Source: a virus (taxonomy: Duplodnaviria > Caudoviricetes). Taken from it: DNA of 64,000 bases. The notes under the pieces were generated by a model. That model ran no database searches. It was given only the letters and a program-made list of their open reading frames with translations, and was not told the origin of the DNA. The stretch covers positions 1-64,000 of IMG/VR virus record IMGVR_UViG_3300048623_000062, one strand, 5' to 3'. This document shows, piece by piece, positions 4,278 to 60,742 of the stretch. The translations under genes and the position numbers were made by a program. Within the stretch, counting starts at the first letter, position 1; every line of letters begins with the position of its first letter.

Positions 4278-4801
4278 CACATCCTCCAGTGCAGCAGAAT
4301 CCACGCCAGCCACTCGAGGCCACCGGATGCAACGAACGACCCCGCGGCCACGGCGGCGACCACCGTGTTGCAGGCGACGCGGAACCGCTGGCTCTCCGGT
4401 GGGATGACCGAGCAGGTGAGCGCTGGGCGGCGGTTGTCGCTGGCCCAGAACACCTCGAGCGCCCAACTCGAGGCTTGCTCCATCGCCATCCCGGCGTTCA
4501 GGCCGACGCTCACGTACCGGCTGAGCTCGGCATGCTCCGAGGTGTCGTTCACCTTGTACGCGGCGAGCGCGCGCGTCGCGGTGACAAGCGGTGACGAGCA
4601 AACGGCGAGGGTGACCTCCGACTGCCTGTCAGCGTCGCGAACGCGGTCCTCGTCGTTCCAGTCGAACTCCATCCCGTCGTCGCCATCCGCGAGGCGATAT
4701 CTTGCCAGTGGCAAGTCCTCGCAATACGCCTCCTCCAGTGTGATCTTGCCGTCGAGGTAGGCGTCCCAGCGCTCCAAGCGTTCTCCGAGGATGTCGCGCA
4801 T
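4274..4801 (-). CDS. Hypothetical protein with C-terminal hydrophobic segment
   Basis: ATG overlaps TGA of DUF1643 gene; the longer 446-aa call is an off-frame extension. Confidence 0.55.
   Translation of the reverse strand: MRDILGERLERWDAYLDGKITLEEAYCEDLPLARYRLADGDDGMEFDWNDEDRVRDADRQSEVTLAVCSSPLVTATRALAAYKVNDTSEHAELSRYVSVGLNAGMAMEQASSWALEVFWASDNRRPALTCSVIPPESQRFRVACNTVVAAVAAGSFVASGGLEWLAWILLHWRMW
4702..4714. repeat. Dispersed palindrome TTGCCASTGGCAA copy
   Basis: cTTGCCAGTGGCAAg read directly; inside CDS (LPLA frame). Confidence 0.9.
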
Positions 4802-5382
4802 CAGATCCTCCATTCGGTGGGTTCGGTGTCCGCCTTCAGGTATAGCGGGTGTTTGGGGTGCCCGTCCTTGGTCAACCCCAGATGATGGAGCCTGATGCCG
4901 TGGTCGGCCAGGAACGTGCGGACCTGGCGCCCGCGACCGCGGTAATCGCCGTGGGTGCCCCAGCCGGCAACAACGATGGTGGCGTGACGGCACGCCGACA
5001 GGATGTGCTGGAGGTTCTCCTCGTGGTTCCGATCGCTGTCGGTCCAGGAGTAGAGCGCCTTCGGATCGGTGGAGCGGAGCGGCTCGATGTTGACCGCCTC
5101 GTACAACTGGCAATTCCACCGGCGGGCGAACGCCATGCCTCGCGTGACGGTCGGGTCCGGGCGGAACGCGTCGGCCTTGCTCGGGTTGAGCATGCAGAAC
5201 ACGGCGCTCCTGAACCCGACCCCCTGGAACCTGCCTCCCATCGTGTAGTCGTGCACAACCACAGACCCGTCGGCTACAAGCAGGCTCGACGGCGTCAGCG
5301 AGCGCGCGAGCCGGAACCGCATGGTGCGGCAGTCGCTGAAGCGCGCCCATCCAGTGAGGTCGGAGTTGAACTCGTCGATCAT
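4801..5382 (-). CDS. DUF1643-family protein
   Basis: MLNPSKAD...DPT, NIEPLRSTDP, VAGWG, LTKDGHPKHPLY signature motifs. Confidence 0.85.
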   Translation of the reverse strand: MIDEFNSDLTGWARFSDCRTMRFRLARSLTPSSLLVADGSVVVHDYTMGGRFQGVGFRSAVFCMLNPSKADAFRPDPTVTRGMAFARRWNCQLYEAVNIEPLRSTDPKALYSWTDSDRNHEENLQHILSACRHATIVVAGWGTHGDYRGRGRQVRTFLADHGIRLHHLGLTKDGHPKHPLYLKADTEPTEWRI

Positions 5383-5399
5383 CGTGTGCTCCGTGGGGT

Positions 5400-5585
5400 T
5401 CAGTTGCCGGATCCGGCAGCCGCGTACGCCTCGGAGAACGCCTTACGAATGGCGTCCTCGGCGTGCTGCCGACGCTTATGGAACGCCGCGTAGAAGCGCA
5501 TCCCGCCGACCTCGCCGATGAGAATGCATCGGCCCGGGAACCTGACGTCGTCGACGGTCGTGAAGGTGATCGTGTAGTCGGCCAT
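5400..5585 (-). CDS. Small hypothetical protein
   Basis: ORF track, operon context. Confidence 0.5.
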   Translation of the reverse strand: MADYTITFTTVDDVRFPGRCILIGEVGGMRFYAAFHKRRQHAEDAIRKAFSEAYAAAGSGN

Positions 5586-5588
5586 GGA

Positions 5589-5945
5589 TCAATTCCCCAC
5601 GACGTCGAGACCACCGGCGGGTAGATCCTTGCAACCGCGCCGGTGGTAGTGCGCGATCGCCACCGCGACGGTGACGCACTGCTTGGTGCGGCGAGCCATG
5701 CGGGTGGCCGCCTCGTCGATCTCGGTTTCCGTCCCGCTCACCCACTGGCGCTCCTCGCCGCAGAGCAGGATGCGGTTGTGCTTGATGTTGTCGACGGAAT
5801 CCAGCAGCGGTTTCCTGTCGGCCACTCGAATCGCAACGTCAACTGAACGGCCGATCGCATCGACGACATCAGACAGAACCTTCAGCGCCACAGCGCCAAG
5901 CAACCATGCTCGCAGCGTCAACATCACAGACTCCTTTCGAAACAC
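5589..5945 (-). CDS. Hypothetical protein, possible N-terminal membrane anchor
   Basis: AAAGGAG RBS upstream; AWLLGAVALKVL. Confidence 0.55.
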   Translation of the reverse strand: MFRKESVMLTLRAWLLGAVALKVLSDVVDAIGRSVDVAIRVADRKPLLDSVDNIKHNRILLCGEERQWVSGTETEIDEAATRMARRTKQCVTVAVAIAHYHRRGCKDLPAGGLDVVGN

Positions 5946-6186
5946 CCGCCTTGTCCCGTCTCGGGGTCGGGCTCGTATCGTTTACCACCCACGTCTCGGC
6001 AAGCAAACTAACCCCACGTCTCGGATAAGAACGCTCGAGACTCGTCGTCGGAAACAGGGCTCCGAGCCACCCTTGAGTTGCCGGTCTTTCCCGGCTGTCA
6101 GCACGCGCTACGTGGCGTTTGCAAACTCACGATGGTTACCTCTGCATTATTAGGCCGCTACAGCAACCAAAAAGCCGCCCAGCCTG

Positions 6187-9389: not shown

Positions 9390-9782
9390 ATGCCACGAAT
9401 CAAAGACGGGTACTGGGACTTCTACCTGATGGGGCGCGAGGAGCGCGTCGCCAAATACAAGCGGGACATCGACCTCGACGCGTTGGAGCGTCAGGTCAAG
9501 GCGTCCGACGCCTCCATGCACCAGGTCATCCTGGCAGAGTGTGAGCAGGTGTGCGCGCCGCTGAGGACCGCGCGCGAACAGCGGAAGTGGGTCGCGGTCC
9601 CGGGCATCGCATCCGACATCAAAGAGGCCGGCGGCGATGAGTCGGCCGCATACACCGCGTGGTGCCACGGCCGGATCGACGAGCTCGCGCTGGTGATCGA
9701 GCGAGATCTCCTCGATGCCATGTCGCCCGATGATGGCGACGACGAGGACGAAGATGAAGAGGACGACGAGGACGAGGACTAG
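9390..9782 (+). CDS. Acidic-tailed hypothetical protein
   Basis: Only plus-strand gene in left arm; fills gap; poly-D/E tail. Confidence 0.6.
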   Translation: MPRIKDGYWDFYLMGREERVAKYKRDIDLDALERQVKASDASMHQVILAECEQVCAPLRTAREQRKWVAVPGIASDIKEAGGDESAAYTAWCHGRIDELALVIERDLLDAMSPDDGDDEDEDEEDDEDED

Positions 9783-10105
9783 ACCGCCAGGATCGATGAG
9801 CGCAGGACAGGAAGGTCGCCCTTCACCGTAACGTCGCGCACGACCCCAATCAGCACGACGTCCTCCCACTCGAAGAACTGCTCGATGAAGTGGTCGACGC
9901 GGTCGATGCCGTTCTTGCTCTCTCCGAGCTTGCTAAGCATCTTCAGGATGCCATCTGGCTGCCTCGACAAGACGCCCTGCATGGCCTGCGAGCCGCCTCG
10001 TATCAGCACGACGCACTCGAGCAGGACCTGACCGTCCGCGTCTTCGGTGCCGTTGGTATAGAACAGTTTATCGATGGTATTCTGCATCCGGGGGTTGTCG
10101 CTCAT
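9779..10105 (-). CDS. Hypothetical protein (Sm/SH3-like?)
   Basis: ORF track, coupled to GT gene. Confidence 0.55.
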   Translation of the reverse strand: MSDNPRMQNTIDKLFYTNGTEDADGQVLLECVVLIRGGSQAMQGVLSRQPDGILKMLSKLGESKNGIDRVDHFIEQFFEWEDVVLIGVVRDVTVKGDLPVLRSSILAV

Positions 10106-11277
10106 GGGGTCTTCCGTTTCATGCTCGCGATTGCGTTGTAGATGTTCGCCCCGACGACCTTGCGCGAGAACCGGTCGGAGGGGTCGTAGTCGAGTCTGAG
10201 GCTGGTGATGCGCTCGAGATACGCGCGGCGCATCGCGATCGCGAGTTGCGATGGGTCCGGGTCGTGCCAGTCATCGTGCACGGACATCCCTTGCGCGCCG
10301 ATGTACTGCATCCGGCCGGTGCCGGTGGCGGGGTCCATCGACACCGTGCGGATCTCGCCGCCGGCCGGCCGAAGCTCGCACCGGTAGCGGTCCGCCGAGG
10401 TGTTCGCGAGGAAGTCGTCGCTCCCCTGCCCCTTGGGCGCGATGATGTGCCGCCTGGCCAGCATCGCCTCGAAGGCGGGGAGGTTCCACGCCTCGCCCCG
10501 GGTCGCGGTGACGAAACAGTGGCTGCCCTGATGAAGCGCGTCGAGCTCGTCATCCGCGAGATGGTGGGTGGAGAATGACATGGGCGGCCATTGCTCCTGG
10601 GGTACGCCTGTCGTGATCGCCGCAAACCGCCCCGCCGTTTGCGGCGCCCCCACCGAATGGACGTGCAGGTGGACGTCGTGGTGCCCACCGAACGCGCGGA
10701 TATACGCCTGGATGAGGCCCTCGACGTTCTTGCGGCGATTCCAGGCTCCGATGTAGTAGAAGTTGTATGCGCTGGCCGGTGGAAGGCCGCTATCCGGCCG
10801 CCATCCGCGATGGCGCGCGCTGGTCGCCGGGTCGTAGGCGTGCGGAATGATCTCGACGCGCTTGGCGAGGTCGAAGTCACCCGGCCCAAACCTCATCGCA
10901 TGGCAGGTCTGCTTGCTCGGCACCCAGATCGCGTCGAACGGACCAAGCGCCTCGGCGACCGCATGCGAGATCGGTGAGAACCCCTCCCAGGTCGTGTACG
11001 CGATCCGCGGCGCACCCTTGCACAGATGACCGACGGCGCCCAGGACGTCGCCACAACTCACCGGCAGCGTGTGGATGATGACCGCGTCCACGTCCGCGCT
11101 GTCCTCGTTCACGTCCCGGATGAAAGGTGCCAGTGGCAAGAACCGGCTCGGGCACTGCTTGGCGTCGGTGGAGATCTCGAGGTCGATCCCAGCCTCGAGC
11201 ATGCTCATACAGAACTCGCCGGCGGCGTCGCCGTAGCCGGTGGGCTTGCCGAGGTGGCCGTAGTAGCGGACCTTCAT
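10102..11277 (-). CDS. Glycosyltransferase family 4 (GT-B)
   Basis: TGYG, YTTWE, IWVPS, YIGAWNRRKNVEGLIQAY, ATRGEAWNLPAFEAM (EX7E). Confidence 0.9.
   Translation of the reverse strand: MKVRYYGHLGKPTGYGDAAGEFCMSMLEAGIDLEISTDAKQCPSRFLPLAPFIRDVNEDSADVDAVIIHTLPVSCGDVLGAVGHLCKGAPRIAYTTWEGFSPISHAVAEALGPFDAIWVPSKQTCHAMRFGPGDFDLAKRVEIIPHAYDPATSARHRGWRPDSGLPPASAYNFYYIGAWNRRKNVEGLIQAYIRAFGGHHDVHLHVHSVGAPQTAGRFAAITTGVPQEQWPPMSFSTHHLADDELDALHQGSHCFVTATRGEAWNLPAFEAMLARRHIIAPKGQGSDDFLANTSADRYRCELRPAGGEIRTVSMDPATGTGRMQYIGAQGMSVHDDWHDPDPSQLAIAMRRAYLERITSLRLDYDPSDRFSRKVVGANIYNAIASMKRKTP
11128..11139. repeat. Near-perfect palindrome copy TGCCAGTGGCAA
   Basis: 12/13 match inside GT4 CDS. Confidence 0.75.
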
Positions 11278-11531
11278 AGATCCTCCGGCCGGAACGTCCA
11301 CGTGCGATTGAACGGTATCCCGTCGGGCGCGATGATGACATCGACGACCAGTGGTCTGAGCGCACGGTCCGTACGCGCGTCGAGATACTCCGCCATGCCC
11401 CAGAAAACGTTCAGGTCACAGTGGCCAGTTTCTTCGGCGGCGATGACGCATGCCGGCCTCGTGAACAAGCGCTGCGATCTGCCCAGGCGGAAGTGAAACA
11501 GCACGATCTGCCCCATCGTTGGAATCTTCAT
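11274..11531 (-). CDS. Phage hypothetical protein, tandem paralog 2
   Basis: MKIPTMGQIVLFHF...RPA...WTFRPEDL. Confidence 0.7.
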   Translation of the reverse strand: MKIPTMGQIVLFHFRLGRSQRLFTRPACVIAAEETGHCDLNVFWGMAEYLDARTDRALRPLVVDVIIAPDGIPFNRTWTFRPEDL

Positions 11532-11834: not shown

Positions 11835-12341
11835 TCAGGCAGGCGTGACCGCGCTCCGCAGGCGGGCGTGGTCGATATCGTTCGAGATCGGGATTGGGAT
11901 CACGGTCGTGTCGATCGCGTGCTTGTGCCACATGGGCATGTACCGGTCGGTCGGCGTCACCACGGCTTCGTACCGCGCGGCGGTGGCGATCGCGTAGGGG
12001 TCCACCGGGAACGAGGGTGTCAGGAGCACGTTGTGAACACCGGCCGTGTAGAGTTCCTGGCGCCCGCTGGCTACGCCGTCGCGCTGGCCCTTGGAGTTCG
12101 TCATGGGCACGTTCTGCACCCAGGACCAGCGGCTCGAGGCGCAGCACACGATGTTGACGTAGCGCGCGTGGAGCGGCGTGGCGAGCAACTGAGCGTAGGG
12201 TTCCCAGGCGCCCGACAACATGCCGGTCATCGATCCCACGCGCACCGGTGCGATGCGCAGGAGCGATTTCAGGTACTCGAGGGAGACCTTGCCGGTCGGC
12301 GAGTCGTCTGTGGTTGCGAAGTAGCGGATAAGCAGGCGCAT
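11835..12341 (-). CDS. Possible stand-alone GT-B N-terminal-like domain
   Basis: SPTGKVSLEY, VVTPT, IPIPI resemble N-terminal half of the adjacent GT4. Confidence 0.4.
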   Translation of the reverse strand: MRLLIRYFATTDDSPTGKVSLEYLKSLLRIAPVRVGSMTGMLSGAWEPYAQLLATPLHARYVNIVCCASSRWSWVQNVPMTNSKGQRDGVASGRQELYTAGVHNVLLTPSFPVDPYAIATAARYEAVVTPTDRYMPMWHKHAIDTTVIPIPISNDIDHARLRSAVTPA

Positions 12342-12705: not shown

Positions 12706-13515
12706 TCAGGTCTTCGGCGGCAACCGCGGCAACTTCTGGAGTTTCGCCACCCAATCGACGGTGGTGTTCCAGTAGTTGTTGATCTGCTTGTTCGCCACCT
12801 CCGGATTGCGGAGAGCAAGTTCTTCGGAGATCGTGGGGTTGCACGTCACGGCGAAGTTGCAGTCGACCGCGTAGTGGTCGAGTTTCGCGTCGCGCCGCCA
12901 CTGCTCGGCCATGTAGATCATGGTCTGTGCGGGAATGAAGCGCCGGTGCGTCGGGTCTTGAAACGCGCGGTCCGAGCGATGCGAGGGCCAGGTGACGTGC
13001 ATCCATCCGCCGGGGACGAGGATGCGATAGCACTCGTCGAAGAACGCAAACAACGCGTCCTTGCGATCGTAGAGATCGCGATCCACGTCGTGGAACTTCG
13101 GCCAGTGGTCGACGTACTCCATCGGGATGTGCTCGATGTAGTGCGAGCAGTGGATCTCGAGGACCGACTCGTTCTCGAACGGCCATGGGTACGCCTGGAG
13201 GTTGACGACGTGCTGGGCGCCGGGCCAGATGTCGACGCCCTCGTAGCCGTCCTTGGGCGACTGGCCACTGGCAAGATCCAGCTTGCGGGTGACCGGCGGC
13301 TTGGAGACCCCGACTAGTCCCGGCTCTTGGAGCGCCGGGATGCTCTGGGTCTCCCCCTGGAAGGGGGTTGGGTATGGAGCCGTGTATCGCCCTGGCAGAG
13401 GCGTTCCGTTGCCGCTGGTGGCGATCGGCACGGCCTGGTGGCAGTCCTTGTAGGGCTTCCCGCTGCCGCACGTACATGGGGCGGAGAGCACGTTCTCGCG
13501 GTCGCTCGGCATCAA
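12706..13515 (-). CDS. SEC-C motif plus class I SAM-dependent methyltransferase
   Basis: CTCGSGKPYKDCH; KLDLASG, WPFENESV, SHYIEH, ECYRILVPGG, DPTH. Confidence 0.85.
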   Translation of the reverse strand: MMPSDRENVLSAPCTCGSGKPYKDCHQAVPIATSGNGTPLPGRYTAPYPTPFQGETQSIPALQEPGLVGVSKPPVTRKLDLASGQSPKDGYEGVDIWPGAQHVVNLQAYPWPFENESVLEIHCSHYIEHIPMEYVDHWPKFHDVDRDLYDRKDALFAFFDECYRILVPGGWMHVTWPSHRSDRAFQDPTHRRFIPAQTMIYMAEQWRRDAKLDHYAVDCNFAVTCNPTISEELALRNPEVANKQINNYWNTTVDWVAKLQKLPRLPPKT

Positions 13516-13874: not shown

Positions 13875-15140
13875 CTACAGCCCCAGCCACTGGGGATTGG
13901 AGAGGTACCACCGCACGGTCTTCTCGAGCGACTGCTCGAGGCCCATCGGGCGCTGCCACCCCATGCGGCGGATGGCGCTGTCGTCCATCGCATAGCGCAG
14001 GTCGTGCCCTGGGCGCGACGAGTGGAAGTCGACGAGCTCGTACTTAAGCTCGTAGTCTTGGCATGCGCGCGTGCGTGCGTCCCGCTCGACGACTCCGTGG
14101 ATGATCTGGGCGAGCTCAAGGTTGGAGAGCTCGCGCTCTCCGCACACGTGAAGTTTGAGCGGAAGCGGGTCGAATGGAGCGTCGACCTCGTCGTATGACT
14201 CGAGGTGCTTGCGGTTCTCGTCATCTCCTACGATCAGCCACGCCAGCGCGTTCGCGAACGTGCGGCAGTGCAGGTAGAACCGCGTGCCCGCGCGCGTCCG
14301 CGTCGGGTCGGCGTGGATGTGGATGGTCTCGCCGGTGAGGATCTTGCGGATCACGAGCGGCACGAACTTCTCGGGGTGCTGGCGCTCGCCGATGAGGTTC
14401 ATGGTGTTCACGATGGTGATGGGCAGGCGGTACGTGTTGGCGTACGCCATGGCAACCATCTCGCCGCCGGCCTTCGCAGCTGCGTAGGGGTTCGCCGGGC
14501 GGAACGTGGCCGCCTCGTCGAAGCCGACGTGCATGGCGGAACGTCTCGCGTCCAAGACGTCCTTGACGATTCCCTGGTAGACCTCGTAATCGAGTCCAAT
14601 TCGCTCACGTTGGGCTTTGGCACCGCCATGCTTGGACAGGATTTCAATCAGGTCCATTGCAAGGTTCACGAACTTGTTAATCGCCGGAGACGCGAAGTTG
14701 CCGCTCCCCTGCATCGGCGCCGGCCCGTACACCTCATCCGTCGACACCACGAATACCCGCCGCACGCTGGGCATCTGCCGCACGGCCCACAGGAGATTGT
14801 GGGTGCCGATCACGTTGCTCTGCAGGAACGGCAACGGGTCGATGATGCTGTTGTCGACGTGGCTCTCCGCCGCGGCGTGGATGATGTAGTCGACCTCGCC
14901 GATCTCGCGCACCACCCCCTCTGCCAGTGGCAAGGTCAGGTCCGGGTTGAGCATCCGCACGCGGTCGGTGAACTCGCTGGGGTCCGACATGCCCTCGCGC
15001 ACAAGGCGGAGCCGGTCGAACCCCATGGAGGCGTACGACAGCTTGTCGAGCACAACGAGCTCGGCCGTAGTGGTCTTCAGGAAGTGCTCGACGAGGTGGC
15101 TGCCGAGGAACCCGCAGCCGCCGGTGATCAGGATGCGCAT
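13875..15140 (-). CDS. rmlB: dTDP-glucose 4,6-dehydratase-like extended SDR with internal insertion
   Basis: ITGGCGFLGS, HAAAESHVDNSI, STDEVYG, YAAAK, HPEKFVP, RPGHDLRYA. Confidence 0.9.
   Translation of the reverse strand: MRILITGGCGFLGSHLVEHFLKTTTAELVVLDKLSYASMGFDRLRLVREGMSDPSEFTDRVRMLNPDLTLPLAEGVVREIGEVDYIIHAAAESHVDNSIIDPLPFLQSNVIGTHNLLWAVRQMPSVRRVFVVSTDEVYGPAPMQGSGNFASPAINKFVNLAMDLIEILSKHGGAKAQRERIGLDYEVYQGIVKDVLDARRSAMHVGFDEAATFRPANPYAAAKAGGEMVAMAYANTYRLPITIVNTMNLIGERQHPEKFVPLVIRKILTGETIHIHADPTRTRAGTRFYLHCRTFANALAWLIVGDDENRKHLESYDEVDAPFDPLPLKLHVCGERELSNLELAQIIHGVVERDARTRACQDYELKYELVDFHSSRPGHDLRYAMDDSAIRRMGWQRPMGLEQSLEKTVRWYLSNPQWLGL
14922..14933. repeat. Near-perfect palindrome copy TGCCAGTGGCAA
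   Basis: 12/13 match inside rmlB-like CDS. Confidence 0.75.
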
Positions 15141-42375: not shown

Positions 42376-42458
42376 CGTGCTACGTCCATCAGGATCCCCG
42401 CTTGCTGCCACGCAGGCTCGGTCGGCGGTGCGGTGATACCATTCTCGGAGGCGAAGCG

Positions 42459-42692: not shown

Positions 42693-42694
42693 CA

Positions 42695-43492: not shown

Positions 43493-43496
43493 ACAC

Positions 43497-43563
43497 GGGG
43501 GCATGGCGCCCATCGGTAGCACCAAGGGCTGGTCTTTGGTGCGCTGACTGACGCCACGACACA
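43497..43563 (+). repeat. Early-region element family B, copy 2
   Basis: Same flanks; stem GCACCAAGG/CTTTGGTGC shows compensatory changes. Confidence 0.85.
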
Positions 43564-43575
43564 GGGGGTTCTGAG

Positions 43576-44286: not shown

Positions 44287-44309
44287 GTCCAAACCACACA
44301 GGAGATAGC

Positions 44310-44459
44310 ATGCGCTGCGACAAAGAGATCGGCCGGATCGGCCACTGGCACCAATGCGACCGTACTGCTGTGGTCACGGTGGCATCGAAAACCATCCACA
44401 GCCCAACGCTGTTCATGAACTACTGCGACAAACACAAGCCGCTCAAGGATGGCAAGTAG
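44310..44459 (+). CDS. Small Zn-finger protein (49 aa)
   Basis: AGGAG RBS; C...C...YCDKH. Confidence 0.5.
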   Translation: MRCDKEIGRIGHWHQCDRTAVVTVASKTIHSPTLFMNYCDKHKPLKDGK

Positions 44460-44461
44460 CC

Positions 44462-44569
44462 ATGACCGTCCGCGCCGATCCAGCCTACCGCGGCGTCGCC
44501 CTACACCTTGGCCACACTGCCAGGTCGTGGATCGCCGAGCAACGCATTCTCGCTGCCGGCGGTCGGTAG
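44462..44569 (+). CDS. Very small early protein
   Basis: Stop coincides with start of element A copy. Confidence 0.35.
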   Translation: MTVRADPAYRGVALHLGHTARSWIAEQRILAAGGR

Positions 44570-44672
44570 GGGGTACAGGTTTCACCGCGGATGGTCGATT
44601 CATCCCGGTGAGCCGATACTGCTACCGAGCGACAACCGCAACCGCCCTCCTGGAGGGCAAGGAGCCACCATG
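44566..44672 (+). repeat. Early-region element family A, diverged copy
   Basis: Conserved GTAGGGGGTACAG and GAGCCGATACTGCTACCGAGC flanks; different but still paired stems. Confidence 0.85.
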
Positions 44673-45200
44673 GGTAAGAAGGAACTGGAAACCGCCTGCA
44701 TCGAGCTCGGACTCACGATCGAGGCGTTCTTCGTGCCGTACTCGCAGAGCGAGAACGCAAAGATGAGCGCTGGTAGCGATAGGCCGTGGCGCTCGCTAAA
44801 CTGGACGATCGTCTTGCGCTGCAAGGGCAGTGAAATCCTCCGCACCAACTTCGCCGCTGGAGTAGGTCACACGCCGACGTGGGCATCGGGGACGTGGGCA
44901 TCGGGGGCATCGAGTCGCGCCGATGTCGCAGCGGCGATCGCGCGAGAGATCGAGACTGGCCGCGCCAACGGCAAGCCAATCCTCCCAGACCGCATCGACT
45001 GCATCGCCAGCGTGGTCGCCGACGCGGACGTGCTCGACTTCCCCGACTTCGAGGCGTTCGCCGGCGAGCTTGGCTACAACCCCGACAGCCGTCACGCAGA
45101 GCGGATCTACAACGCCTGTGTGAAGACCGCCATAGCACTGCGCGCTGCCGTTGGCGAGGATGGCCTCGCTAAACTCCGCGCGGCCAGGGAGGACTACTAG
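44670..45200 (+). CDS. Conserved phage hypothetical protein
   Basis: AAGGAG RBS; FEAFAGELGYNPDSRHAERIYNAC. Confidence 0.7.
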   Translation: MGKKELETACIELGLTIEAFFVPYSQSENAKMSAGSDRPWRSLNWTIVLRCKGSEILRTNFAAGVGHTPTWASGTWASGASSRADVAAAIAREIETGRANGKPILPDRIDCIASVVADADVLDFPDFEAFAGELGYNPDSRHAERIYNACVKTAIALRAAVGEDGLAKLRAAREDY

Positions 45201-45204: not shown

Positions 45205-45405
45205 ATGGCGACGCCATACGAGATCGCGAGTGAAGCCCATCGGCAAGCCGCGTCGTTGTACGCTAAGGCGTCGAGCGCCTACCGCGCTCGCACGATCGGC
45301 GACGCCGAATTTCTCGCGGCTAGGGCTGCATTCGATGCGGCCACCGCGGCATTCGATGCGGCGTACGCCGCCGAGGAAGCGCGAGTGCTGGCGGGGGAGT
45401 CATGA
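45205..45405 (+). CDS. Ala-rich helical small protein
   Basis: ATG at 45205. Confidence 0.5.
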   Translation: MATPYEIASEAHRQAASLYAKASSAYRARTIGDAEFLAARAAFDAATAAFDAAYAAEEARVLAGES

Positions 45406-45893
45406 CCGACATTTGCCAGTGGCAAGAGTCGGAAGCGGTGCGCCTCGGCAGCACCGACCAGCAGTTGCTGTACGCCTCTGGGCAACTCCGCGAGGAGGAC
45501 CTCACCTCACTAGCTCGCAATGCGCTGTTCGCTCCGCTCTCTGTCCTGCGTCCTAGGCGCCAGATGTCACCCACCGTCATCCGTCATCCCGTGGACGCGT
45601 CCACCGGCCGGTGGACCTGCGCACCGGACGGCCGACGTTTACCAGTTCGGTGGTCAACTACACTTACGTCCGAGCTTACGGACATGGAGTTAGCCTCTCT
45701 CGCTGCGGTGGAGATCGCAGTCGAGCGCATGAACCTCAATGAGTGGTTGATCCGAGCGCGCGTTTACGCCACGATTCAACCACGGCTTCACCGGGGATAC
45801 TGCACGGCATGCCTGCAGTCCGCCGCTGAAGTATCCGCTCTCGTCTCGGTCTCTTGGGCCGGACGCACCCTTTCCCGGGAGTACGCACTATGA
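45402..45893 (+). CDS. Hypothetical protein
   Basis: GGGGGAG RBS; coupled. Confidence 0.55.
   Translation: MTDICQWQESEAVRLGSTDQQLLYASGQLREEDLTSLARNALFAPLSVLRPRRQMSPTVIRHPVDASTGRWTCAPDGRRLPVRWSTTLTSELTDMELASLAAVEIAVERMNLNEWLIRARVYATIQPRLHRGYCTACLQSAAEVSALVSVSWAGRTLSREYAL
45413..45425. repeat. Dispersed palindrome copy
   Basis: TTGCCAGTGGCAA; inside CDS (CQWQ frame). Confidence 0.9.
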
Positions 45894-49082: not shown

Positions 49083-49256
49083 ATGCCTACCAAGATTGTC
49101 TCTAACCGCTCGATGACCCCGGCCCCGGACTTTCATATGGCCCTCCTATGGCTCCGTTCCATGGAGTCCATAATCGGCCACTCTGCGGTGGTCCTGCTGT
49201 CGGAGGTCGAGCAGTACGACCTGTTCGGGAACTACCGGCCGTTGGTTAAGGCGTGA
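49083..49256 (+). CDS. Small hypothetical protein
   Basis: AAGGAG RBS. Confidence 0.45.
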   Translation: MPTKIVSNRSMTPAPDFHMALLWLRSMESIIGHSAVVLLSEVEQYDLFGNYRPLVKA

Positions 49257-50288
49257 TCTCGACCACGCTCTACAACGAGAACGACGACTTCGCAGCCACC
49301 TGGCTGGAAAGCCTCATCGCCCATGGCCACATCGCGCAAGGAACCGTCGACCGACGCTCCATCGCCGACCTCACCCCAGCCGACGTTTCCGGGCCTGGAC
49401 AGCGCCACTTCTTCGCCGGGATTGGCGGATGGTCCCATGCCCTACGCCTCGCCGGAGTCAGCGACGATACCGACGTCTGGACAGGGAGTTGCCCCTGCCA
49501 GCCGTTCTCGGACGCGGGCAAGGGGGGGCGGAGTTCTCGACCCTCGACATCTTTGGCCGGCATGGTTCTCACTCATCCGCGAGTGCCGCCCTCCAATCAT
49601 CTTTGGAGAGCAGGTTGCGAGCCGCGATGGTCTCGAGTGGTTCGACGCTGTTTCGACTGACCTGGAACGATGCGATTACGCCGTCGGGGCGGCGGATCTA
49701 TGCGCTGCGGGCGTCGGTGCTCCGCACATCCGACAGCGGCTGTACTTCGTGGCCTACGCCATTGGCGACCGACGGCTCAAAGGCATCGGCGTACAGCAAC
49801 CGCAACGGCGACCCGAACCAGCCGTGCCTCAAGCTGACCGGAGCGGCGAAGATGGCGGCGTGGCCGACGCCGGTGGCACGGGACCACAAAACGGGCGGGA
49901 TGGACAGCCAGCTATCGACCGTGGCTCCGCTCGCAGCATGGGCAACCCCGGCCGCACACGAGGCGGGCGGAACGCCGGAGACGTTCATGGCGCGCAAGAC
50001 GAAGTGCGCGGAGCGAGCCGCGGACCGGGGCGTGAGCATGGGCGTCTCGTTGACGTCGCTGGCGATGCAGGTGCAACTCGCGGATTCTGGAACCCAGCCG
50101 ACTGGATCCTCTGCCGAGACCCAGCCGGGGGTCAGCCGGTCGCCCGGCCAGTTGAACCCGGAGCATTCCCGCTGGCTGCAGGGGTACCCGGCCGCGTGGG
50201 GCTCTTGCGGGGCTACGGCAACGCCATCGTCCCGCAAGTCGCCGCCCAGTTCATCCAAGCGGCGCTCCAAGCCATAGGAACGGCGTAG
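49253..50288 (+). pseudogene. C5 cytosine DNA methyltransferase alpha chain, frameshifted by one extra G in G7 run (49522-49528)
   Basis: HFFAGIGGW, GSCPCQPFS in frame 1; DPRHLWP, GEQV, APHIRQRLYFVA, GYGNAIVPQVA in next frame; removing one G gives GKGGGVLDPRHLWP. Confidence 0.85.
49323..50277 (+). CDS. Overlapping alternative-frame MTase beta chain (WPTP repeats, motif IX); start uncertain, also crosses G7 run
   Basis: SAALQSSLESRL, WPTP x2 plus WATP, GQLNPEHSRWLQGYP in ORF 49429-50277. Confidence 0.7.
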
Positions 50289-50309
50289 CAGATCCCGGAT
50301 GATTCCGAC

Positions 50310-50322
50310 TTGCCAGTGGCAA
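50310..50322. promoter_or_regulatory. Dispersed palindrome copy directly upstream of parB-like gene
   Basis: cTTGCCAGTGGCAAg, intergenic. Confidence 0.85.
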
Positions 50323-50493
50323 GCGTGGCGAGCATGATGCCACGCGACTCTGTGATTGACCCTGCGATCGAACGTTTTGGCAATGGCGGTAGCCCGCGAG
50401 GCGGCGTACCTCACCGCTGAACGCGAAAGCCTCGGACTGGTGAGTCCTGACGGCCCGCCACCCTTCCCTATCCCCATCCCCAAGGAGACTGTG

Positions 50494-51825
50494 ATGCGTT
50501 TCGATGACGATACTGACACCACCCCCGAAGAAGAGATCGATGAAATCGGCCCGGAAGTGACCGACGAGATCGAAGGCGACCCCGACGACAACGAGATCCC
50601 GGACCCGGAAGTCGTTCTAGTTCCAGACCCGGAGGCCGACTCGCCCGAGGAGCCGGTGCCGACCAAGGGGAATGGCCGCTCCAAGAAGCGGGCTTCGAAG
50701 CCGAAGCCGGGATCGGATGACCTCACGCTGGTGCCGACACGCTCGTTCGCCAAGCAGATTCCGGTCGCCGCCGAAGTCGTGGAGCCGCCGACTCCGGCCG
50801 AGGAGCGTGAGGTCCGGTACGAGCGCTTGAGTTCGATCCGGATCGAATACAAGCACTGGCAGAACCCGCGCCAGCGCACGGGGCTCGAGGACGCCAAGAT
50901 CAAGGCTCTTGCCGAGAGCATCTCGGCCCGCAGCACTACCGATGAGACCGGCGTTGTCACGGCCGGCCTCAAGACGCCGCTGGACGTCGTCGCCATCAAG
51001 TCCAACGGCGGCACCGTCCTCCTGGCGATCGACGGTCAGCGCCGGACGCGCGCGATGGAGTACCTGGGTCTACCGAGCGACACGCTCGTCCCGGTGTTCT
51101 ACTACAAGCCGGAACCCATCGACTGGACCCCAGCGGTTGCCGCCGAGCTCCTGCTCGAGGTCGTCGAGATGGCCTCCACGCGCGAGGGGCTGTCGAGCTT
51201 CGAGCTCGCGGACGTCGCCCAGCGACTCCGCTCGTCCAAGGACGAGGACACCGGCAAGGAATACACGATGGCGAAGATCGCCAAGGCGATCGACCGCTCC
51301 GAGTCGTGGTGCTCCAAGATCCTGGGCGCGATGAAGACCGCCACGCCTGCGCTCTTGCTGCGGTGGGAGAAAGGCGAGGTCACGGACGAGCAATTTAAGG
51401 ATTTGGCCGCGACCAAGGAGCCAAGCAAACAGAAGTCCGCCCTCAACGCCGTCATCGAGGCGCGGACGACCGGCGACACGCGCGGCGCGCGCACCCTCGC
51501 CAAAGAAGCGAAGGTCATCGCAAAGCGCGACGAGCCAAAGTCGAAGCCAAAGAAGCCGGCCAAGGGCGAGCAGACGTCGATCGATACGCCTCCTCCCATG
51601 AGGCCAACCCCGGGTGCGATCCTCGACGACCTGATCCGCGTGGCCGACGATCGCCCGCCGACCCACGACTACGTGCGCGGCATCATGGACGGCTTGCGAT
51701 ATGCGCGCGGCGGCATCGACCCGAGGAACTTCGGTAAGCCGTGGGGGGTATATCTGGGGCTCGTCATGGGCGAGTCGCCCACGAAGGCGAAGCCGGCCAA
51801 GGGCGCCAAGAAGCCCAAGAAGTAG
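50494..51825 (+). CDS. parB: ParB/Srx-family protein with HTH
   Basis: AAGGAG RBS; NPR, ALAESI, GLKTPL, IDGQRRTRA, REGLSSFE, MAKIAKAIDRSESWCSKIL. Confidence 0.85.
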   Translation: MRFDDDTDTTPEEEIDEIGPEVTDEIEGDPDDNEIPDPEVVLVPDPEADSPEEPVPTKGNGRSKKRASKPKPGSDDLTLVPTRSFAKQIPVAAEVVEPPTPAEEREVRYERLSSIRIEYKHWQNPRQRTGLEDAKIKALAESISARSTTDETGVVTAGLKTPLDVVAIKSNGGTVLLAIDGQRRTRAMEYLGLPSDTLVPVFYYKPEPIDWTPAVAAELLLEVVEMASTREGLSSFELADVAQRLRSSKDEDTGKEYTMAKIAKAIDRSESWCSKILGAMKTATPALLLRWEKGEVTDEQFKDLAATKEPSKQKSALNAVIEARTTGDTRGARTLAKEAKVIAKRDEPKSKPKKPAKGEQTSIDTPPPMRPTPGAILDDLIRVADDRPPTHDYVRGIMDGLRYARGGIDPRNFGKPWGVYLGLVMGESPTKAKPAKGAKKPKK

Positions 51826-54592: not shown

Positions 54593-55321
54593 ATGGCGGA
54601 TGCCAGCTTCGACGCCGACGTAGCCCAAGCGCGAGGCGTCTACCAGACGCTCGGGCCGTGGATCGACCGCTACCACGGCGGGATCCCAGTCGGCTTCCTG
54701 GCCGCCGCCATCTCCCACGAGAGCGGCGGCAACTTCAACGCCCCGGGCGACATCCTGCTGGGCGAGGTCGGTTACCTCCAGGTCGCCGCCTACGTGCCGC
54801 CGCTGTTCGGATACGCGGCCGAGGCGCGGAACGACCCCGAGTCGAACATCGCGATCGGCGTGCTCGAGTACGAGCTCGAGGCCGCGCTGTGGGCGCTCTC
54901 GACGCCCCAGGTCTCACTCGGCTCGTCCGACAACTGGAAACTCGCCCGGCTGGCGTTCGCGGTCGGCCGCTCCGGGTCGCGTCAACTCGCCAACGCCGCC
55001 GCCTTGAGCGTCGGCCTCCCCCAGGGCGACGTGTTCGGCGCCATCCGGCGCTACGTGCAGGTCTCCGGCGGCATCCCGCTCGGCAGCCAGAGCGCGGACA
55101 AGGTCGCCGCGCGCGTGCTCAGCATCGATCGCCAGTGGGACATCGGCCAGGCCGTGGCCTTCGGGATCCCCGGCCCTCCGATGTACATCCCGGATCCGCC
55201 GGCCGGCCCGTACGTCATCCCGCCTGAAGTTGCCCCCTATTTCGTGAAGCCGATCTCAGGTATCCTCCTACTCGCAGCCGGTGGAGCTGTACTCACCTAC
55301 CTCCTACTGAGGCGAGCATGA
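54593..55321 (+). CDS. Lytic transglycosylase (SLT-like) with C-terminal membrane anchor
   Basis: ISHESGG (catalytic Glu), GYLQV, DPESNI; C-terminal TM. Confidence 0.75.
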   Translation: MADASFDADVAQARGVYQTLGPWIDRYHGGIPVGFLAAAISHESGGNFNAPGDILLGEVGYLQVAAYVPPLFGYAAEARNDPESNIAIGVLEYELEAALWALSTPQVSLGSSDNWKLARLAFAVGRSGSRQLANAAALSVGLPQGDVFGAIRRYVQVSGGIPLGSQSADKVAARVLSIDRQWDIGQAVAFGIPGPPMYIPDPPAGPYVIPPEVAPYFVKPISGILLLAAGGAVLTYLLLRRA

Positions 55322-55827
55322 AGCCCTTGATTCTCACGCCCCGAACGAGACCGCAGCCCGGCGGCGCGGGCAGCAAGATCGGCCCCATCTCCACGAATCG
55401 GACGGTGGCCACCGTCCAGACCCCAGCGGTCCAGAGCGGCCAGTCCGAGTACCGGTACCAGGCGAACACCTACATCACCAAGGTCCCGGTCACCGGCGAG
55501 CCGCCGCAGATCATCTACAACGGCGATCGGCTGTGGGCTCGCGTGACCCTGACGCTCGAGACCGCCGGCCCCGTCGCGGTCGGCGAGAACCAGCAGTTGA
55601 CCCCGGTGCTGTCGGGCAAGGGGCAGTTGCTGCAAACGGGCGTCGCGACCACGTTCAACATCGGCAAGGGCAACAAACTCTATGTCGCCGCCACGACGGT
55701 GAACAGGATCAAGGTCCTCGTCGAGGCGGTACCGTGGCTCGAGACCATCACCGGGCTCCTGACCTCGGTGCTCGGATCGATGGGCGGCAGCGTGCTGGAC
55801 CTCGTCCGGTCTCGCTCGAAGCTGTAG
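55318..55827 (+). CDS. Small beta-sandwich virion-like protein
   Basis: RVTL...VAVG...GKGQLL.TG...KLYV...KVLVE. Confidence 0.55.
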   Translation: MKPLILTPRTRPQPGGAGSKIGPISTNRTVATVQTPAVQSGQSEYRYQANTYITKVPVTGEPPQIIYNGDRLWARVTLTLETAGPVAVGENQQLTPVLSGKGQLLQTGVATTFNIGKGNKLYVAATTVNRIKVLVEAVPWLETITGLLTSVLGSMGGSVLDLVRSRSKL

Positions 55828-55830: not shown

Positions 55831-55843
55831 TTGCCACTGGCAA
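55831..55843. repeat. Dispersed palindrome copy (intergenic)
   Basis: cTTGCCACTGGCAA. Confidence 0.9.
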
Positions 55844-55861: not shown

Positions 55862-56662
55862 ATGTCATACCCTCAGCCCTCAGCGAACGGCTACTGCGTC
55901 GGCGGATCCCAGTTCTTCCGTCTACGCACGCTGCTGTCGTCTCCCGGTGACATCTACGAGTCCGACCAGGGCTGTCTGGCCCTGTCGCTCGGTCCGGACT
56001 CGGACTTAGCGAACATCAACGTCAACTACTTCGATGACCAGGTCACGAACTTCGTGCAGCAGACGACGATCGGCCCGCAGCGGTCGTTCGTTGGTCGAGT
56101 CGACGCGAACCCCAGCGAGACCTACTCGCCATCGAAGGTCCCCGGTCGGATCTTCTTCTGGTCGGCCGATATCTACGATCCGAATTTCCGCCCCAGGACG
56201 TTCGATTTCACCAACGACACGATCAACTTTCAGACGCCGGTTCTCGACGTGGTCCAGTATTTCCAGGCGCCCCCTACGCTGGTTCCGCCGCGCATCGACA
56301 AGCAGTTCGTATATCAGAACTACAACGCGTTCGGCGGCGTGTGCTGGATCGTGGTCCCGTTCTACAGCCGGAAGTTCGCGTACATCCAGTTCACGAATCG
56401 CACCCCGGCGTCGGGAATGACGTTCCAGATCATCGGCGTGAATTTCGCGATTTCGCCGAACCCGAACCCGATGAACCCGCTTGCCGGTCCGCCGTATCAC
56501 CAAGAACGACAAATCTTGGCGCCAACGCTCATCCCGTTCACGACCTCGTCGAACACCATCGTCAACGCGACCACCGTTGGGATGTTCGACGCGCTCGTGA
56601 TCGGCATCCAGGGGGCGGTTGGGCCGGCCCCGCTCCGCATCGTCACCTCGGACACGCTGTGA
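55862..56662 (+). CDS. Beta-rich putative virion (vertex/spike) protein
   Basis: Aromatic/beta-rich composition; structural block context. Confidence 0.55.
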   Translation: MSYPQPSANGYCVGGSQFFRLRTLLSSPGDIYESDQGCLALSLGPDSDLANINVNYFDDQVTNFVQQTTIGPQRSFVGRVDANPSETYSPSKVPGRIFFWSADIYDPNFRPRTFDFTNDTINFQTPVLDVVQYFQAPPTLVPPRIDKQFVYQNYNAFGGVCWIVVPFYSRKFAYIQFTNRTPASGMTFQIIGVNFAISPNPNPMNPLAGPPYHQERQILAPTLIPFTTSSNTIVNATTVGMFDALVIGIQGAVGPAPLRIVTSDTL

Positions 56663-58968: not shown

Positions 58969-59213
58969 GTGAGACACACCGTACCATCTGCTGGTGTATC
59001 CGTGGTAAGAAGACACTACGGGTAGCGGCTCGAACCATAGCGCCTCGGGGAGACCCCAAGGACAGGGTGTATTTGGCTCGGTGTCTCAGTCCGCCGAGTA
59101 ACGTCGGATGGCAAGGGGATGCACCATCCGGGACCTACATTCAACAGACTCGAGCCGTTGCCCGGCTTTCATCGCTTCCGGCGCTGTTGGTCGCAGGCGT
59201 TGAGGTCGCTGAC

Positions 59214-59363
59214 CTATTTTGGGCAACTGGCGCTGTAGGTGTCGTTGCACCATGGCTGCTTGCTCGTCGCCACCGCCCCTGCGGCCACCTGCGTGAGGTG
59301 GGCTGTGGTGAGCGTGCGGATGGTCTCGAGCTTCAGGGCGACGCGCGGTCTGGTGTTCTTCAT
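59214..59363 (-). CDS. RiPP (lanthipeptide-like) precursor peptide, 49 aa, not in ORF track
   Basis: MKNTRPRVALKLETIRTLTTAHLTQVAAG-AVATSKQPWCNDTYSASCPK; GGGGG RBS. Confidence 0.65.
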   Translation of the reverse strand: MKNTRPRVALKLETIRTLTTAHLTQVAAGAVATSKQPWCNDTYSASCPK

Positions 59364-59381
59364 CCCCCAGACTAGCACGCC

Positions 59382-59732
59382 TCAGCGCGACGGCGGAGTC
59401 GCGTACTCGGGGCCGACCATCGACGTGTCGACGACGATCGCCGCGGGGAACTGCGACGGCTCGGCCGCGATCACCTCGACCTGGATGGTCGCCTGCTTTC
59501 CGAGGGCGTTGATATTCACGTTGATGGGGCCGGGCGACTCGGTCACCCCGTCGATATACACCGTCCGGCCGTCGGGGAGCACCCCAACGCGACAGCGCTC
59601 GCTCGGGCAACTCGCCACGATCGGCGAGGTCGTGTCGAGCACGTTGTTCGCCGATCCGATGGAATCGAACGCGGAGTACAGGAGGATGGGACCGAGGTTC
59701 CGAGACTTGCCAACATGAATTTGGAATTGCAC
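59382..59732 (-). CDS. Ig-like beta-sandwich hypothetical protein
   Basis: Probable GTG start at 59732; beta-rich. Confidence 0.5.
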   Translation of the reverse strand: MQFQIHVGKSRNLGPILLYSAFDSIGSANNVLDTTSPIVASCPSERCRVGVLPDGRTVYIDGVTESPGPINVNINALGKQATIQVEVIAAEPSQFPAAIVVDTSMVGPEYATPPSR

Positions 59733-59857
59733 TGGCCGTGGTGTACCATGGCGCTGCCCAAGCCGACCGCAGTAGGTCTCAGGTAAGAGCCGGGTCCTGA
59801 GGCCCACGTACCCACCGTGGAATCGTCCCTGTCAGCTACGGTCGGCCCGGCTTGGGT

Positions 59858-60742
59858 CTATCGTCGCCTGCGCTTCGCGCGTTCAACCACGGGCGGCGCC
59901 TTGAGCAGCCCGCTCACGAGGCCAGCGCCGATGTTGTCGAGCTCGTCCTGCGACACCGCGCTCACGTAGCGCGCTGCGGTCTCCATGCTCTCCCACCCCA
60001 TGTACCGCTGTAGCTTCACGATCGCGTTCGGGTCGCCGGCCAACTGGTTCAGGTAGTTCGTCGCGAACGTGTGCCGGTAGCGGTGCGGAGACATGTTCGC
60101 GATGTCGACCTTCGCTGCGGTCCGCTTCGCCGCGCGATACACCATCACCCGAGCCACCTCCGGGTTATCTGATGCGCTGATGAGATCGCGGACGCGCTCC
60201 CAGTCGGAGAAATCGGCGAGCTCGCGCAATTGCGCCCGGATCGGCTCGGCAGAGATCTCCATGCGCTTGCGACCCTTACCTTCGTACACAAGCTTGCCAG
60301 TGGCAAGCGCGCGCTGCACATCGGCGTTCTGCATGCGCAGGACGTCACTGCAGCGAAGCCCACGGATGGCCATAATGAGCAGCACCTGGCGCATCGCCTC
60401 GTTGCGCATTGAGCACGTCTGCATGTGCTGGATGACCTCGCGCCACTGCTCGAGGTCGAGCGGTTGCTTGGTGGTCAGGCGTCTGGCCGGAGGGAGTCGG
60501 ATGTCCTTGAGTACCTCGGCCATCTCCGGGTTCTTGGAGAACTTCGCCCACGCGCGCAGCGCAGCCATGTTGGTGCGCAGCGAGTTCGGGGCCAGGCGGC
60601 CGGCCACGAGGCGCCGGGTGAGTTGGCGATCCTTGGCGCATGACTTCAGGTTCGACACGTAGAGCGCCGCCGTGCCGATTGACCGACCGCGGTCGAGAAC
60701 CCAAGAGCGGAACTTCGCGAGGTTATGCTCGGTGATTTCCAT
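59858..60742 (-). CDS. Tyrosine recombinase (integrase/resolvase)
   Basis: RGLRCSD (R), GKG (K), PHRYRHTFA (HxxR), YMGW, ARY (Y); likely start 60742 or 60766. Confidence 0.9.
   Translation of the reverse strand: MEITEHNLAKFRSWVLDRGRSIGTAALYVSNLKSCAKDRQLTRRLVAGRLAPNSLRTNMAALRAWAKFSKNPEMAEVLKDIRLPPARRLTTKQPLDLEQWREVIQHMQTCSMRNEAMRQVLLIMAIRGLRCSDVLRMQNADVQRALATGKLVYEGKGRKRMEISAEPIRAQLRELADFSDWERVRDLISASDNPEVARVMVYRAAKRTAAKVDIANMSPHRYRHTFATNYLNQLAGDPNAIVKLQRYMGWESMETAARYVSAVSQDELDNIGAGLVSGLLKAPPVVERAKRRRR
60294..60306. repeat. Dispersed palindrome copy
   Basis: gcTTGCCAGTGGCAAgc (17 bp); inside recombinase CDS (LATGK frame). Confidence 0.9.

Follow-up and report, generated by a model that had tools for sequence, protein, structure and literature searches.

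Why does an uncultivated tailed virus carry the same 13-bp palindrome along most of its genome, with one copy directly upstream of a gene for a ParB-like protein, and what reads it? The DNA in question is positions 1 to 64,000 of IMG/VR record IMGVR_UViG_3300048623_000062 (Duplodnaviria; Caudoviricetes), called the window below, which is the first 64 kb of a contig of 81,143 bp (65% G+C, CheckV 94% complete). The palindrome is TTGCCASTGGCAA, the gene lies at 50494-51825, and a sequence-only reading had taken the two together for a distributed, centromere-like system. Our comparisons point instead to a binding site kept by selection on the DNA itself, and to the ParB-like protein as its likely reader in a role other than partition. 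Genomes and metagenome-assembled genomes (MAGs) compared are denoted by G numbers, with the contig under study as G000, and individual loci by L numbers; the relatives found by homology search with the 50494-51825 protein are five complete IMG/VR genomes of 75-86 kb with direct terminal repeats (G001 to G005).

The eight perfect copies claimed for the window were all recovered, and three more (65810, 69053 and 74855) lie in the contig beyond it, giving 11 in 81,143 bp. Base composition predicts 0.0014 copies per 64 kb, or about 0.002 per contig, in agreement with the earlier rough figure of about 0.001, and 100 dinucleotide-preserving shuffles of the window contained none. When up to two mismatches were allowed, 14 matches were found in the window against 0.67 expected. 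The near copies proposed at 11128, 13264 and 14922 turned out to be genuine one-mismatch sites lying one or two bases to the left, and the difference is confined to the outermost left bases in all three. The copies in the window, to which no strand is assigned, are as follows.

4702-4714: perfect palindrome TTGCCAGTGGCAA within coding DNA; the position is also kept in G001.
11127-11139: one-mismatch copy GTGCCAGTGGCAA in a glycosyltransferase-like gene (10102-11301, minus strand), at the same codon in G001.
13262-13274: one-mismatch copy TGGCCACTGGCAA in gene 12706-13515 (minus strand).
14921-14933: one-mismatch copy CTGCCAGTGGCAA in gene 13875-15140 (minus strand).
24411-24423: perfect copy at about codon 28, near the 5′ end of gene 23975-24499 (minus strand).
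35511-35523: perfect copy in gene 34327-36054 (minus strand).
39829-39841: perfect intergenic copy close to where leftward (virion) genes give way to rightward (early) ones.
45413-45425: perfect copy at the extreme start of open reading frame (ORF) 45402-45893 (plus strand), reading C-Q-W-Q.
50310-50322: perfect copy preceding the ParB-like gene, extended by its flanks to a palindrome of 15 bp; candidate autoregulatory operator.
55831-55843: perfect intergenic copy between 55318-55827 and 55862-56662, 19 nt before the ATG.
60294-60306: perfect copy inside the integrase gene, encoding L-A-T-G-K.

Three weaker copies had also been suggested; the one at 935 is a two-mismatch copy, whereas those at 30283 and 46725 retain only the left half-site and the centre. 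A variant of the form TTGCCACTGTC[AG]T, with the left half-site intact and the right half altered, occurs at 935-947 and 30283-30295, and the copy upstream of the ParB-like gene in G003 (at about position 190) is the same left-half variant, TTGCCACTGTCAT.

The flanks of the 11 perfect copies, with G following nine and C preceding five, tend towards a 15-bp palindrome, cTTGCCASTGGCAAg. TTGCCASTGGCAA is the sole palindrome with six-base arms repeated more than three times in G000, and its 7-bp core CCASTGG occurs outside full sites at the expected frequency (about 20 observed, 18 expected), indicating that the signal is the long site and not a short restriction-type word. A second over-represented word, GTTCGAGAACAC (nine copies), was rejected as a regulatory motif because it derives from tandem coding repeats of about 125 bp in 16801-19632.

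A spacing of about 5 kb, as first described, holds for the right-hand part of the genome, where gaps between perfect copies measure 3.2-5.8 kb from 35.5 to 74.9 kb, but not for the first 35 kb, the virion gene half, which contains gaps of 19.7 and 11.1 kb; taken over the contig, a copy comes about every 5-7 kb. Treating the genome as a circle with 14 perfect and one-mismatch copies, the coefficient of variation of the gaps was 0.49, compared with 0.91 for random placement (P=0.006); among the 11 perfect copies the smallest gap, 3.2 kb, was likewise larger than random placement gives (P=0.004), and the spacing statistics of G001 and G004 are similar. Sites not fully within a gene are enriched about two-fold in five genomes with crude gene calls based on third-position G+C (19 of 54, 9.7 expected, P=0.002). 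Genic copies occur on either coding strand and in all three reading frames; the sequence-only reading had pointed out that their frames differ.

Conservation in the relatives extends from the number of copies to their places. The ParB-like protein family comprises about 195 clusters at 50% identity. G001, whose ParB-like protein is 83% identical, carries 10 perfect and four near copies, and G004 (38% identical) carries seven of each; G003 and G005 (44-45% identical) have a relaxed form, TTKCCASTGGMAA. All six assembly loci (L033-L038, ParB 33-48% identical) and all three MAG contig loci (L040-L042) have the palindrome. Five copies each, about 5 kb apart within 21 kb, were found in L035 and L037, and the MAG contigs G007:C411 and G008:C2 contain four and eight. 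Upstream of the ParB-like gene the palindrome is present in 15 of 16 loci of the GC-rich set (L163 and L164 included), usually exactly and in a few cases with one or two mismatches, and it persists there despite differing neighbour genes. The 39829 copy has counterparts in the equivalent region of G001, G004, L035, L037, L038 and L041, and the 55831 copy occupies the same intergenic position in seven genomes (G000, G001, G004, G005, L035, L037 and L038).

Copies inside genes allow DNA-level and protein-level constraint to be told apart. The 24411 copy is kept at codon 28 of 23975-24499 in four genomes (G000, G001, G003 and G005; proteins 53-99% identical), and a palindrome lies at codon 148 of a GP88-like gene in three. 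In the integrase gene the copy covers the same codons, around codon 252, in five genomes whose integrases are 48-90% identical and whose flanking codons have diverged, and the encoded residue alternates between Thr (ACT) and Ser (AGT), tracking the C or G permitted at the centre of the palindrome. Since these 13 bases are fixed while their flanks diverge, and Thr or Ser follows the central C or G, selection acts on the DNA, as had been proposed from the differing frames. Judged by these sequence comparisons, the palindrome is a protein-binding site maintained by selection on the DNA itself. Even spacing upheld inside coding DNA, as far as fixing integrase codons, is a clear case of DNA-level constraint shaping a protein sequence.

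The motif is close to absent from the bacterial genomes searched. Three MAGs with a relative (8.3, 8.0 and 3.0 Mb) contain one, four and eight perfect copies, every one on a viral contig; prophage copies sought in bacterial genomes were limited to these three viral-looking contigs. In 151 genomes from the family of the Bradyrhizobium-labelled MAG, 17 palindrome copies were counted against 11 for a reversed control pattern, a density of about 0.02 per Mb compared with 136 per Mb in the virus, or about 6,000-fold lower. The genomes used as host background are candidate taxa, so the possibility that the motif is equally abundant in host DNA, which the sequence-only reading had named as its own refutation, is dismissed for the taxa searched. 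In a motif-first scan of IMG/VR the matches listed were mostly single chance matches in unrelated contigs (median G+C 0.53); among them, a two-copy locus (L139) was set aside as a coding tandem repeat and not a dispersed site. A literature search for the exact 13-mers returned tomato CRISPR target sequences as the only occurrence.

The protein encoded beside the 50310 copy had been called ParB-like from sequence, and structure and profile comparisons bear this out.

50494-51825, plus strand: predicted orphan ParB/KorB/Noc-fold protein of 443 aa.

Translation starts at the ATG at 50494, preceded by AAGGAGAC. The protein comprises a disordered acidic N-terminus, a predicted nucleotide-binding N-domain with the boxes NPR, GQRR and TREGLS, a helix-turn-helix (HTH) with the recognition helix RSESWCSKIL, a C-terminal dimerisation domain and a Lys-rich tail. 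In Pfam its homologues match ParB_N, HTH_ParB, RepB and KorB: PF02195 (ParB_N) was matched by 7 of 27 family members, HTH_ParB, HTH_31 and HTH_23 by 7-13 of 27, and KorB (PF08535) weakly by 6 of 27 (best E 0.0069). The family profile aligned with Spo0J (4umk, E 4.7e-6), pairing NPR with QPR, DGQRR with GERR, T-R-E-G-L-S with ENLQREDLN, and the HTH; IDGQRRTRAM and NPR, unchanged throughout the 27 homologues, align with GERRxRA and QPR of Spo0J 4umk and 1vz0.

An AlphaFold model built with the 27 homologues reached a mean pLDDT (predicted local distance difference test) of 79, with values above 90 over residues 110-350 and a disordered, acidic stretch of 95 residues at the N-terminus. Foldseek matched it, at E 2e-8 to 2e-6, to Noc (7nfu), ParB with CDP or CTP-gamma-S (6sdk, 7bnk and 7bnr), Caulobacter ParB (6t1f), Spo0J (1vz0) and KorB (8qa9), with probability 1.00 for ParB, Noc, KorB and sulfiredoxin (Srx). 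The best match was Noc 7nfu (E 2e-8), the highest target-normalised template-modelling score was that of KorB 8qa9 (0.66), and model helices 259-266 and 270-282 align with the HTH of Spo0J. Fold model and profiles together confirm the predicted membership of the ParB/Srx-fold superfamily, in its DNA-binding, HTH-bearing group. A two-copy model gave a symmetric interface through C-terminal helices 368-425 with an ipSAE of 0.50, compared with 0.00 for the best of three controls; contact agreement in the homodimer runs was at least 55% and partner pLDDT at least 73, and the ipSAE mark is passed for 20 of 30 proteins whose solved form is a homodimer, as against 1 of 23 known as monomers. This pass may reflect mere likeness to solved ParB C-terminal dimers.

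The copy upstream of the gene coincides with its presumed promoter and is followed by a conserved leader.

50310-50338, plus strand: sigma-70-like promoter TTGCCA-17 nt-CATGAT, whose -35 element is the left half-site of the palindrome.
50383-50401, plus strand: conserved leader element ATGGCGGTAGCCCGCGAGG, between the operator and the ParB start.

With 9 of 12 consensus matches (0.1 expected in shuffles), TTGCCA-17-CATGAT is the sole sigma-70-like promoter in 49900-50600, and the same overlap of palindrome and -35 occurs in G001, G005, L036 and L164. The copy that the sequence-only reading had singled out upstream of parB is thus a candidate operator, through which the protein's gene would be switched off at its promoter. 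An operator on its own promoter is the usual arrangement for ParB- and KorB-type proteins. The leader ATGGCGGTAGCCCGCGAGG is nearly identical in G000, G001, G002, G004, G005, L036 and L164, where the ParB-like proteins are only 38-46% identical, and downstream of it lies a hairpin that varies; the leader may be an RNA element or else a short upstream ORF (MAVARE...). Rfam gave no match for it or elsewhere in the window, and no tRNAs were detected in the window.

The overlap with a -35 element raises the question of whether the palindrome acts as a promoter element repeated across the genome, or, at the RNA level, as a small hairpin, given that its left half-site resembles the -35 consensus TTGACA and that cUUGCC-ASU-GGCAAg could fold into a 6-bp stem with a triloop. 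A -10 element at 16-18 nt was found for only 5 of 150 site-orientations in all genomes (background rate 1%), all five being copies at ParB-like genes, which shows that the palindrome does not serve as a promoter element in general. For a hairpin, complementary arms would suffice, but the exact sequence does not change between viruses whose proteins share 35-50% identity; the copies, moreover, are found on either coding strand and in every frame, and no Rfam family matched. Both forms of this explanation were already disfavoured and are, in our estimate, highly improbable.

Taken together, these results suggest the following mechanism. A dimer of the virus's own orphan ParB-fold protein would read the palindrome (c)TTGCCA-S-TGGCAA(g); the copy at 50310, lying over the -35, would make the gene autoregulatory, and the remaining 10-13 evenly spread copies, genic and intergenic, would serve as loading or operator sites from which a ParB-type clamp may occupy, and possibly slide over, the whole viral chromosome for silencing or organisation. 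That the protein reads the palindrome is well supported by comparative evidence, though not proven: a copy precedes its gene in 15 of 16 GC-rich loci, the recognition-helix core S-x-S-W-[VC]-S-[KR] hardly varies in genomes with an invariant palindrome, and two distant, lower-GC homologues with other helices (L165 and L166) lack the palindrome, with no alternative site that could be defined for them. Co-variation of helix and site does not discriminate within the GC-rich clade, where both are nearly constant and the helix variants KSKSW (L163) and RSKGW (L164) still stand beside the canonical palindrome. Nucleotide binding, sliding and the effect of coating are likewise inferred. The full proposal, in which an autoregulating orphan clamp is loaded at sites spread evenly and silences or organises the whole genome in the manner of KorB or Noc, without ParA-driven partition, has in our judgement an even chance of being right.

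In L166 itself (56% G+C), several palindromes on GGCAAC/GTTGCC arms (GGCAACGTCACGTTGCC, GGCAACGGTTGCC and CGTTGCCGCAGGCAACG) are clustered within 1 kb at 4118-5119 and may be a different site set for the diverged ParB.

Several observations weigh against the clamp proposal. As a direct query the ParB-like protein fell below threshold in Pfam and PHROGs, and sequence searches of a phage collection, a plasmid collection and PDB sequences gave no match, so that it is identified only through homologue profiles and fold search. Box III keeps R-E-x-L but replaces the E-N pair of ENLQRE (...ASTREGLS; family ...vatREgLsSfEl), and cytidine triphosphate (CTP) hydrolysis, perhaps CTP use, may differ. Most dispersed copies lie without a recognisable promoter nearby, which makes direct repression at each site unlikely. 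The complete genome G002 encodes a ParB-like protein (46% identical) with the same recognition helix (RSESWVSKML), yet has zero dispersed copies and only one symmetric variant site, cTTGCAAcTTGCAAg, upstream of the gene; another dispersed palindrome replacing the missing one was sought in G002 and none was found, a 14-copy word being rejected because it belongs to a CRISPR-like array. Finally, the unrelated 69-kb virus G159 (IMGVR_UViG_3300025918_000011) shares almost no proteins with the clade and has no detectable member of this ParB family, yet bears five perfect palindromes within 3.8 kb (41194-45075; L161:1194-5075), each within the 17 nt that separate TTGACG from TATATT in the promoter of a leaderless gene. 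Beside them lies a second palindrome, GTGATTGSCAATCAC, in three copies, and the region resembles a two-operator switch. Sites without this ParB mean that another protein can read the sequence or that ParB acts in trans; either G159 and the clade viruses use different readers of the same sequence, or two kinds of virus interact through it.

These two viruses lend weight to the view that the palindrome is read by another DNA-binding protein, a small viral repressor or a host factor, with the ParB-like gene as just one target of a stoperator-like repressor network: G159 has the identical 13-mer in promoter spacers, paired with GTGATTGSCAATCAC, and G002 retains the ParB but not the dispersed sites. 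Four small proteins (9779-10105, 11835-12341, 64170-64634 and 78398-78886) occur in all palindrome-bearing genomes and not in G002. Pfam recognised no DNA-binding domain in these four or in ten G159 proteins around the cluster, however, and no candidate reader common to G159 and the clade was found. A regulon-like set of copies was absent from all 154 bacterial genomes searched, the only link kept in 15 of 16 loci is that to the promoter of the ParB-like gene itself, and ParB-family proteins are known readers of exactly such sites. We consider a different reader unlikely.

Whether the sites form a true distributed centromere, as first suggested, depends on the rest of a partition system. On that account they would be partition sites of an extrachromosomal N15-like prophage, with the ParB working with a host ParA or another motor; a ParB-family protein does occur together with dispersed palindromes, N15 uses four dispersed SopB sites, and tyrosine recombinases can double as plasmid dimer resolvases. 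A ParA-type ATPase (PF13614 or PF01656), already noted as not visible in the window, was absent from the whole contig and from four complete relatives (G001, G002, G004 and G005), in a search whose control was positive in 14 of 14 genomes. The ParA-binding motif [LFI]G[KR]G[LFI], as defined in PMC12704722, was absent from the ParB-like protein, N-terminus included, and no replication initiator or plasmid-type module was recognised.

59858-61054, minus strand: tyrosine integrase, a context that argues for integration over plasmid-like maintenance.

The integrase is conserved; lysis genes adjoin it in G000 and at the loci of the relatives, an arrangement also seen in integrating temperate viruses. 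The relatives' records end in direct terminal repeats, as in virion DNA. The lack of ParA, the integrase and the terminal repeats argue against a plasmid-like prophage in need of a centromere. The centromere part of the sequence-only reading is thus not supported; the system is not ParABS, and we regard a centromere working with a borrowed motor as very unlikely.

A third possibility arises from the gene directly upstream of the operator.

49253-50288, plus strand: C5-cytosine DNA methyltransferase, just upstream of the operator, with its N-terminal motifs in a different frame.

The clamp could load at the dispersed sites and recruit or activate this methylase or another modifier, so that only palindrome-bearing viral DNA would be modified along its length. 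The gene immediately preceding that for the ParB-like protein encodes a C5-methylase (PF00145) in G000, G001, G005, L034, L035, L037, L038 and L163, and across six complete or near-complete genomes it is present where the motif is strong (G000, G001, G004 and G005) and absent where the motif is missing or weak (G002 and G003), although this correlation comprises six genomes only, two of them close relatives. Fusions of phage ParB folds to DNA methyltransferases are frequent (PMC12704722), and one thymine dioxygenase strictly depends on a phage ParB for its activation on double-stranded DNA (PMC13229309); the dioxygenase-activating ParBs have no DNA-binding domain, unlike the 50494-51825 protein, and a Tet/JBP homologue was not found, in a search run without a positive control. 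The methylase of G004 lies about 33 kb away from the ParB, and L033 and L036 have none within 10 kb. In G000 the gene looks frameshifted: its frame is split near 49535, with hidden Markov model positions 61-86 in one frame and 82-164 in another, and the orthologue in G001 is intact (391 aa open), so the split is either a frameshift, a pseudogene or an assembly error. ParB-guided methylation is kept as a rival or an added function, and a quite unlikely one. A broader version, in which the clamp would load at evenly spaced 'self' sites and coat the viral chromosome, setting it apart from host DNA for selective C5-methylation or for whole-genome silencing or compaction, and in which the G159 operator would reflect cross-talk or conflict between co-infecting viruses, seems doubtful to us.

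For the orphan-clamp reading, the practical gain is a clade of uncultivated viruses of roughly 75-88 kb in which protein and 13-bp site are both defined and the map of sites, the presumed autoregulatory copy included, is conserved. With this protein-site pair the role of viral orphan ParBs becomes directly testable. Should the KorB-like reading be true, sliding clamps that silence at long range would occur in viruses as well as in one plasmid family; the methylase link, if true, would show how a virus confines DNA modification to its own genome.

The genomes hold further features. G002 (IMGVR_UViG_3300036868_000046), the sole relative without the dispersed palindrome, contains at 17088-18490 (L015) a CRISPR-like array of at least 12 repeats of about 36 bp (GTCGCAAGGGATGCTCAAGGCTCCATGCCTTGAGAC) with a period of about 72 bp and some duplicated spacers. 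G003 has ten hairpin units CTCGGC-NNN-GCCGAG, most then followed by AC (26726-27221, 32063, 35380 and 35446; L020), seven of them within 500 bp, and the unit ends are similar to the G002 repeat (...GAGAC). At 75069-77030 on the minus strand of the contig (L039:13069-15030) a 653-aa protein gave a weak Cas12f1-like TNB match (E 1.7e-4, below the Pfam cut-off); it has homologues in G001, G002 and G003 and may belong with the hairpin repeats of the relatives. The gene at 16801-19632 (minus strand) encodes a 943-aa protein of tandem coding repeats of about 125 bp, or about 42 aa (...TVVFSNSNGVSFG...), kept in G001 and G002 and without a Pfam or PHROG match. None of the large virion-region proteins tested from 16801-38849 (556, 575, 436, 943 and 688 aa) matched a terminase, portal, capsid or tail family in Pfam or PHROGs, and a tblastn search of 50,697 phage records with the 556-aa protein gave no match; this clade stands remote from the phages in culture.

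Among known systems, KorB of plasmid RK2 offers the closest parallel to the proposed clamp. KorB binds a 13-bp palindromic site, OB, with a central G/C and the core TTTAGCGGCTAAA, present 12 times on a 60-kb plasmid, and is a CTP-dependent sliding clamp for long-range silencing (PMC11790492). The predicted viral protein shares the ParB fold, N-terminal nucleotide-binding domain, HTH and C-terminal dimerisation, with a structural match to 8qa9; the sites are 13-bp perfect palindromes with a central G/C in both (TTTAGCSGCTAAA in RK2, TTGCCASTGGCAA in the virus), and about a dozen are spread over a replicon of 60-80 kb, some at promoters and others far from them, with one placed to control the protein's own operon. 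The present system matches KorB in site form, number, distribution and, as proposed, self-control. In contrast, KorB has a ParA partner, IncC, with an IncC-binding N-terminal peptide, and also partitions its plasmid, and the virus has neither partner nor peptide; Pfam recognised no KorA- or TrbA-like clamp-locking partner among the neighbours of the viral ParB, sequence similarity is marginal (Pfam KorB E 0.007, 6 of 27 members), the viral replicon has an integrase, and the viral protein lacks the E-N residues of box III.

Phages and prophages often carry orphan ParB-fold proteins, among which forms without the ParA-binding motif are frequent on prophages; what most of them do is largely open (PMC12704722). 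VirB-virS of Shigella (PMC10770331) is an orphan ParB-type CTP switch that serves transcription control and not segregation; VirB differs as an anti-silencer at a few plasmid promoters, without even spacing across a genome. Noc of Bacillus is likewise an orphan ParB paralogue without ParA and with palindromic sites chromosome-wide, and gave the best Foldseek match (7nfu), but it has an N-terminal membrane-targeting amphipathic helix and controls the division site, whereas the viral N-terminus is long, acidic and disordered. Likeness to Spo0J and chromosomal ParB covers the fold, box I (NPR/QPR), box II (GQRR/GERR), the HTH position and C-terminal dimerisation; canonical parS sites, by contrast, are even palindromes of 16 bp clustered near the origin, the canonical protein acts together with ParA and SMC, and the LG[KR]GL motif and ENLQRE that it carries are both absent from the viral protein.

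In cluster A mycobacteriophages the stoperators (L5 gp71) are asymmetric sites that point along the direction of transcription and are bound by a monomeric immunity repressor. They resemble the viral copies in being 13-bp sites repeated throughout a temperate phage genome, genic and intergenic, for genome-wide silencing; the viral site differs in being palindromic, with a ParB-fold dimer as its proposed reader. N15, with SopB and four dispersed centromere sites, and P1, with ParB-parS, are temperate phages with a ParB-family protein and scattered inverted-repeat sites, but both encode an ATPase (SopA and ParA, respectively) and are kept as plasmids, whereas the virus has no ATPase and has an integrase. 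A KorB/Noc-type orphan ParB whose loading or operator sites are dispersed is a better fit to the arrangement than a dispersed centromere of the N15 type.

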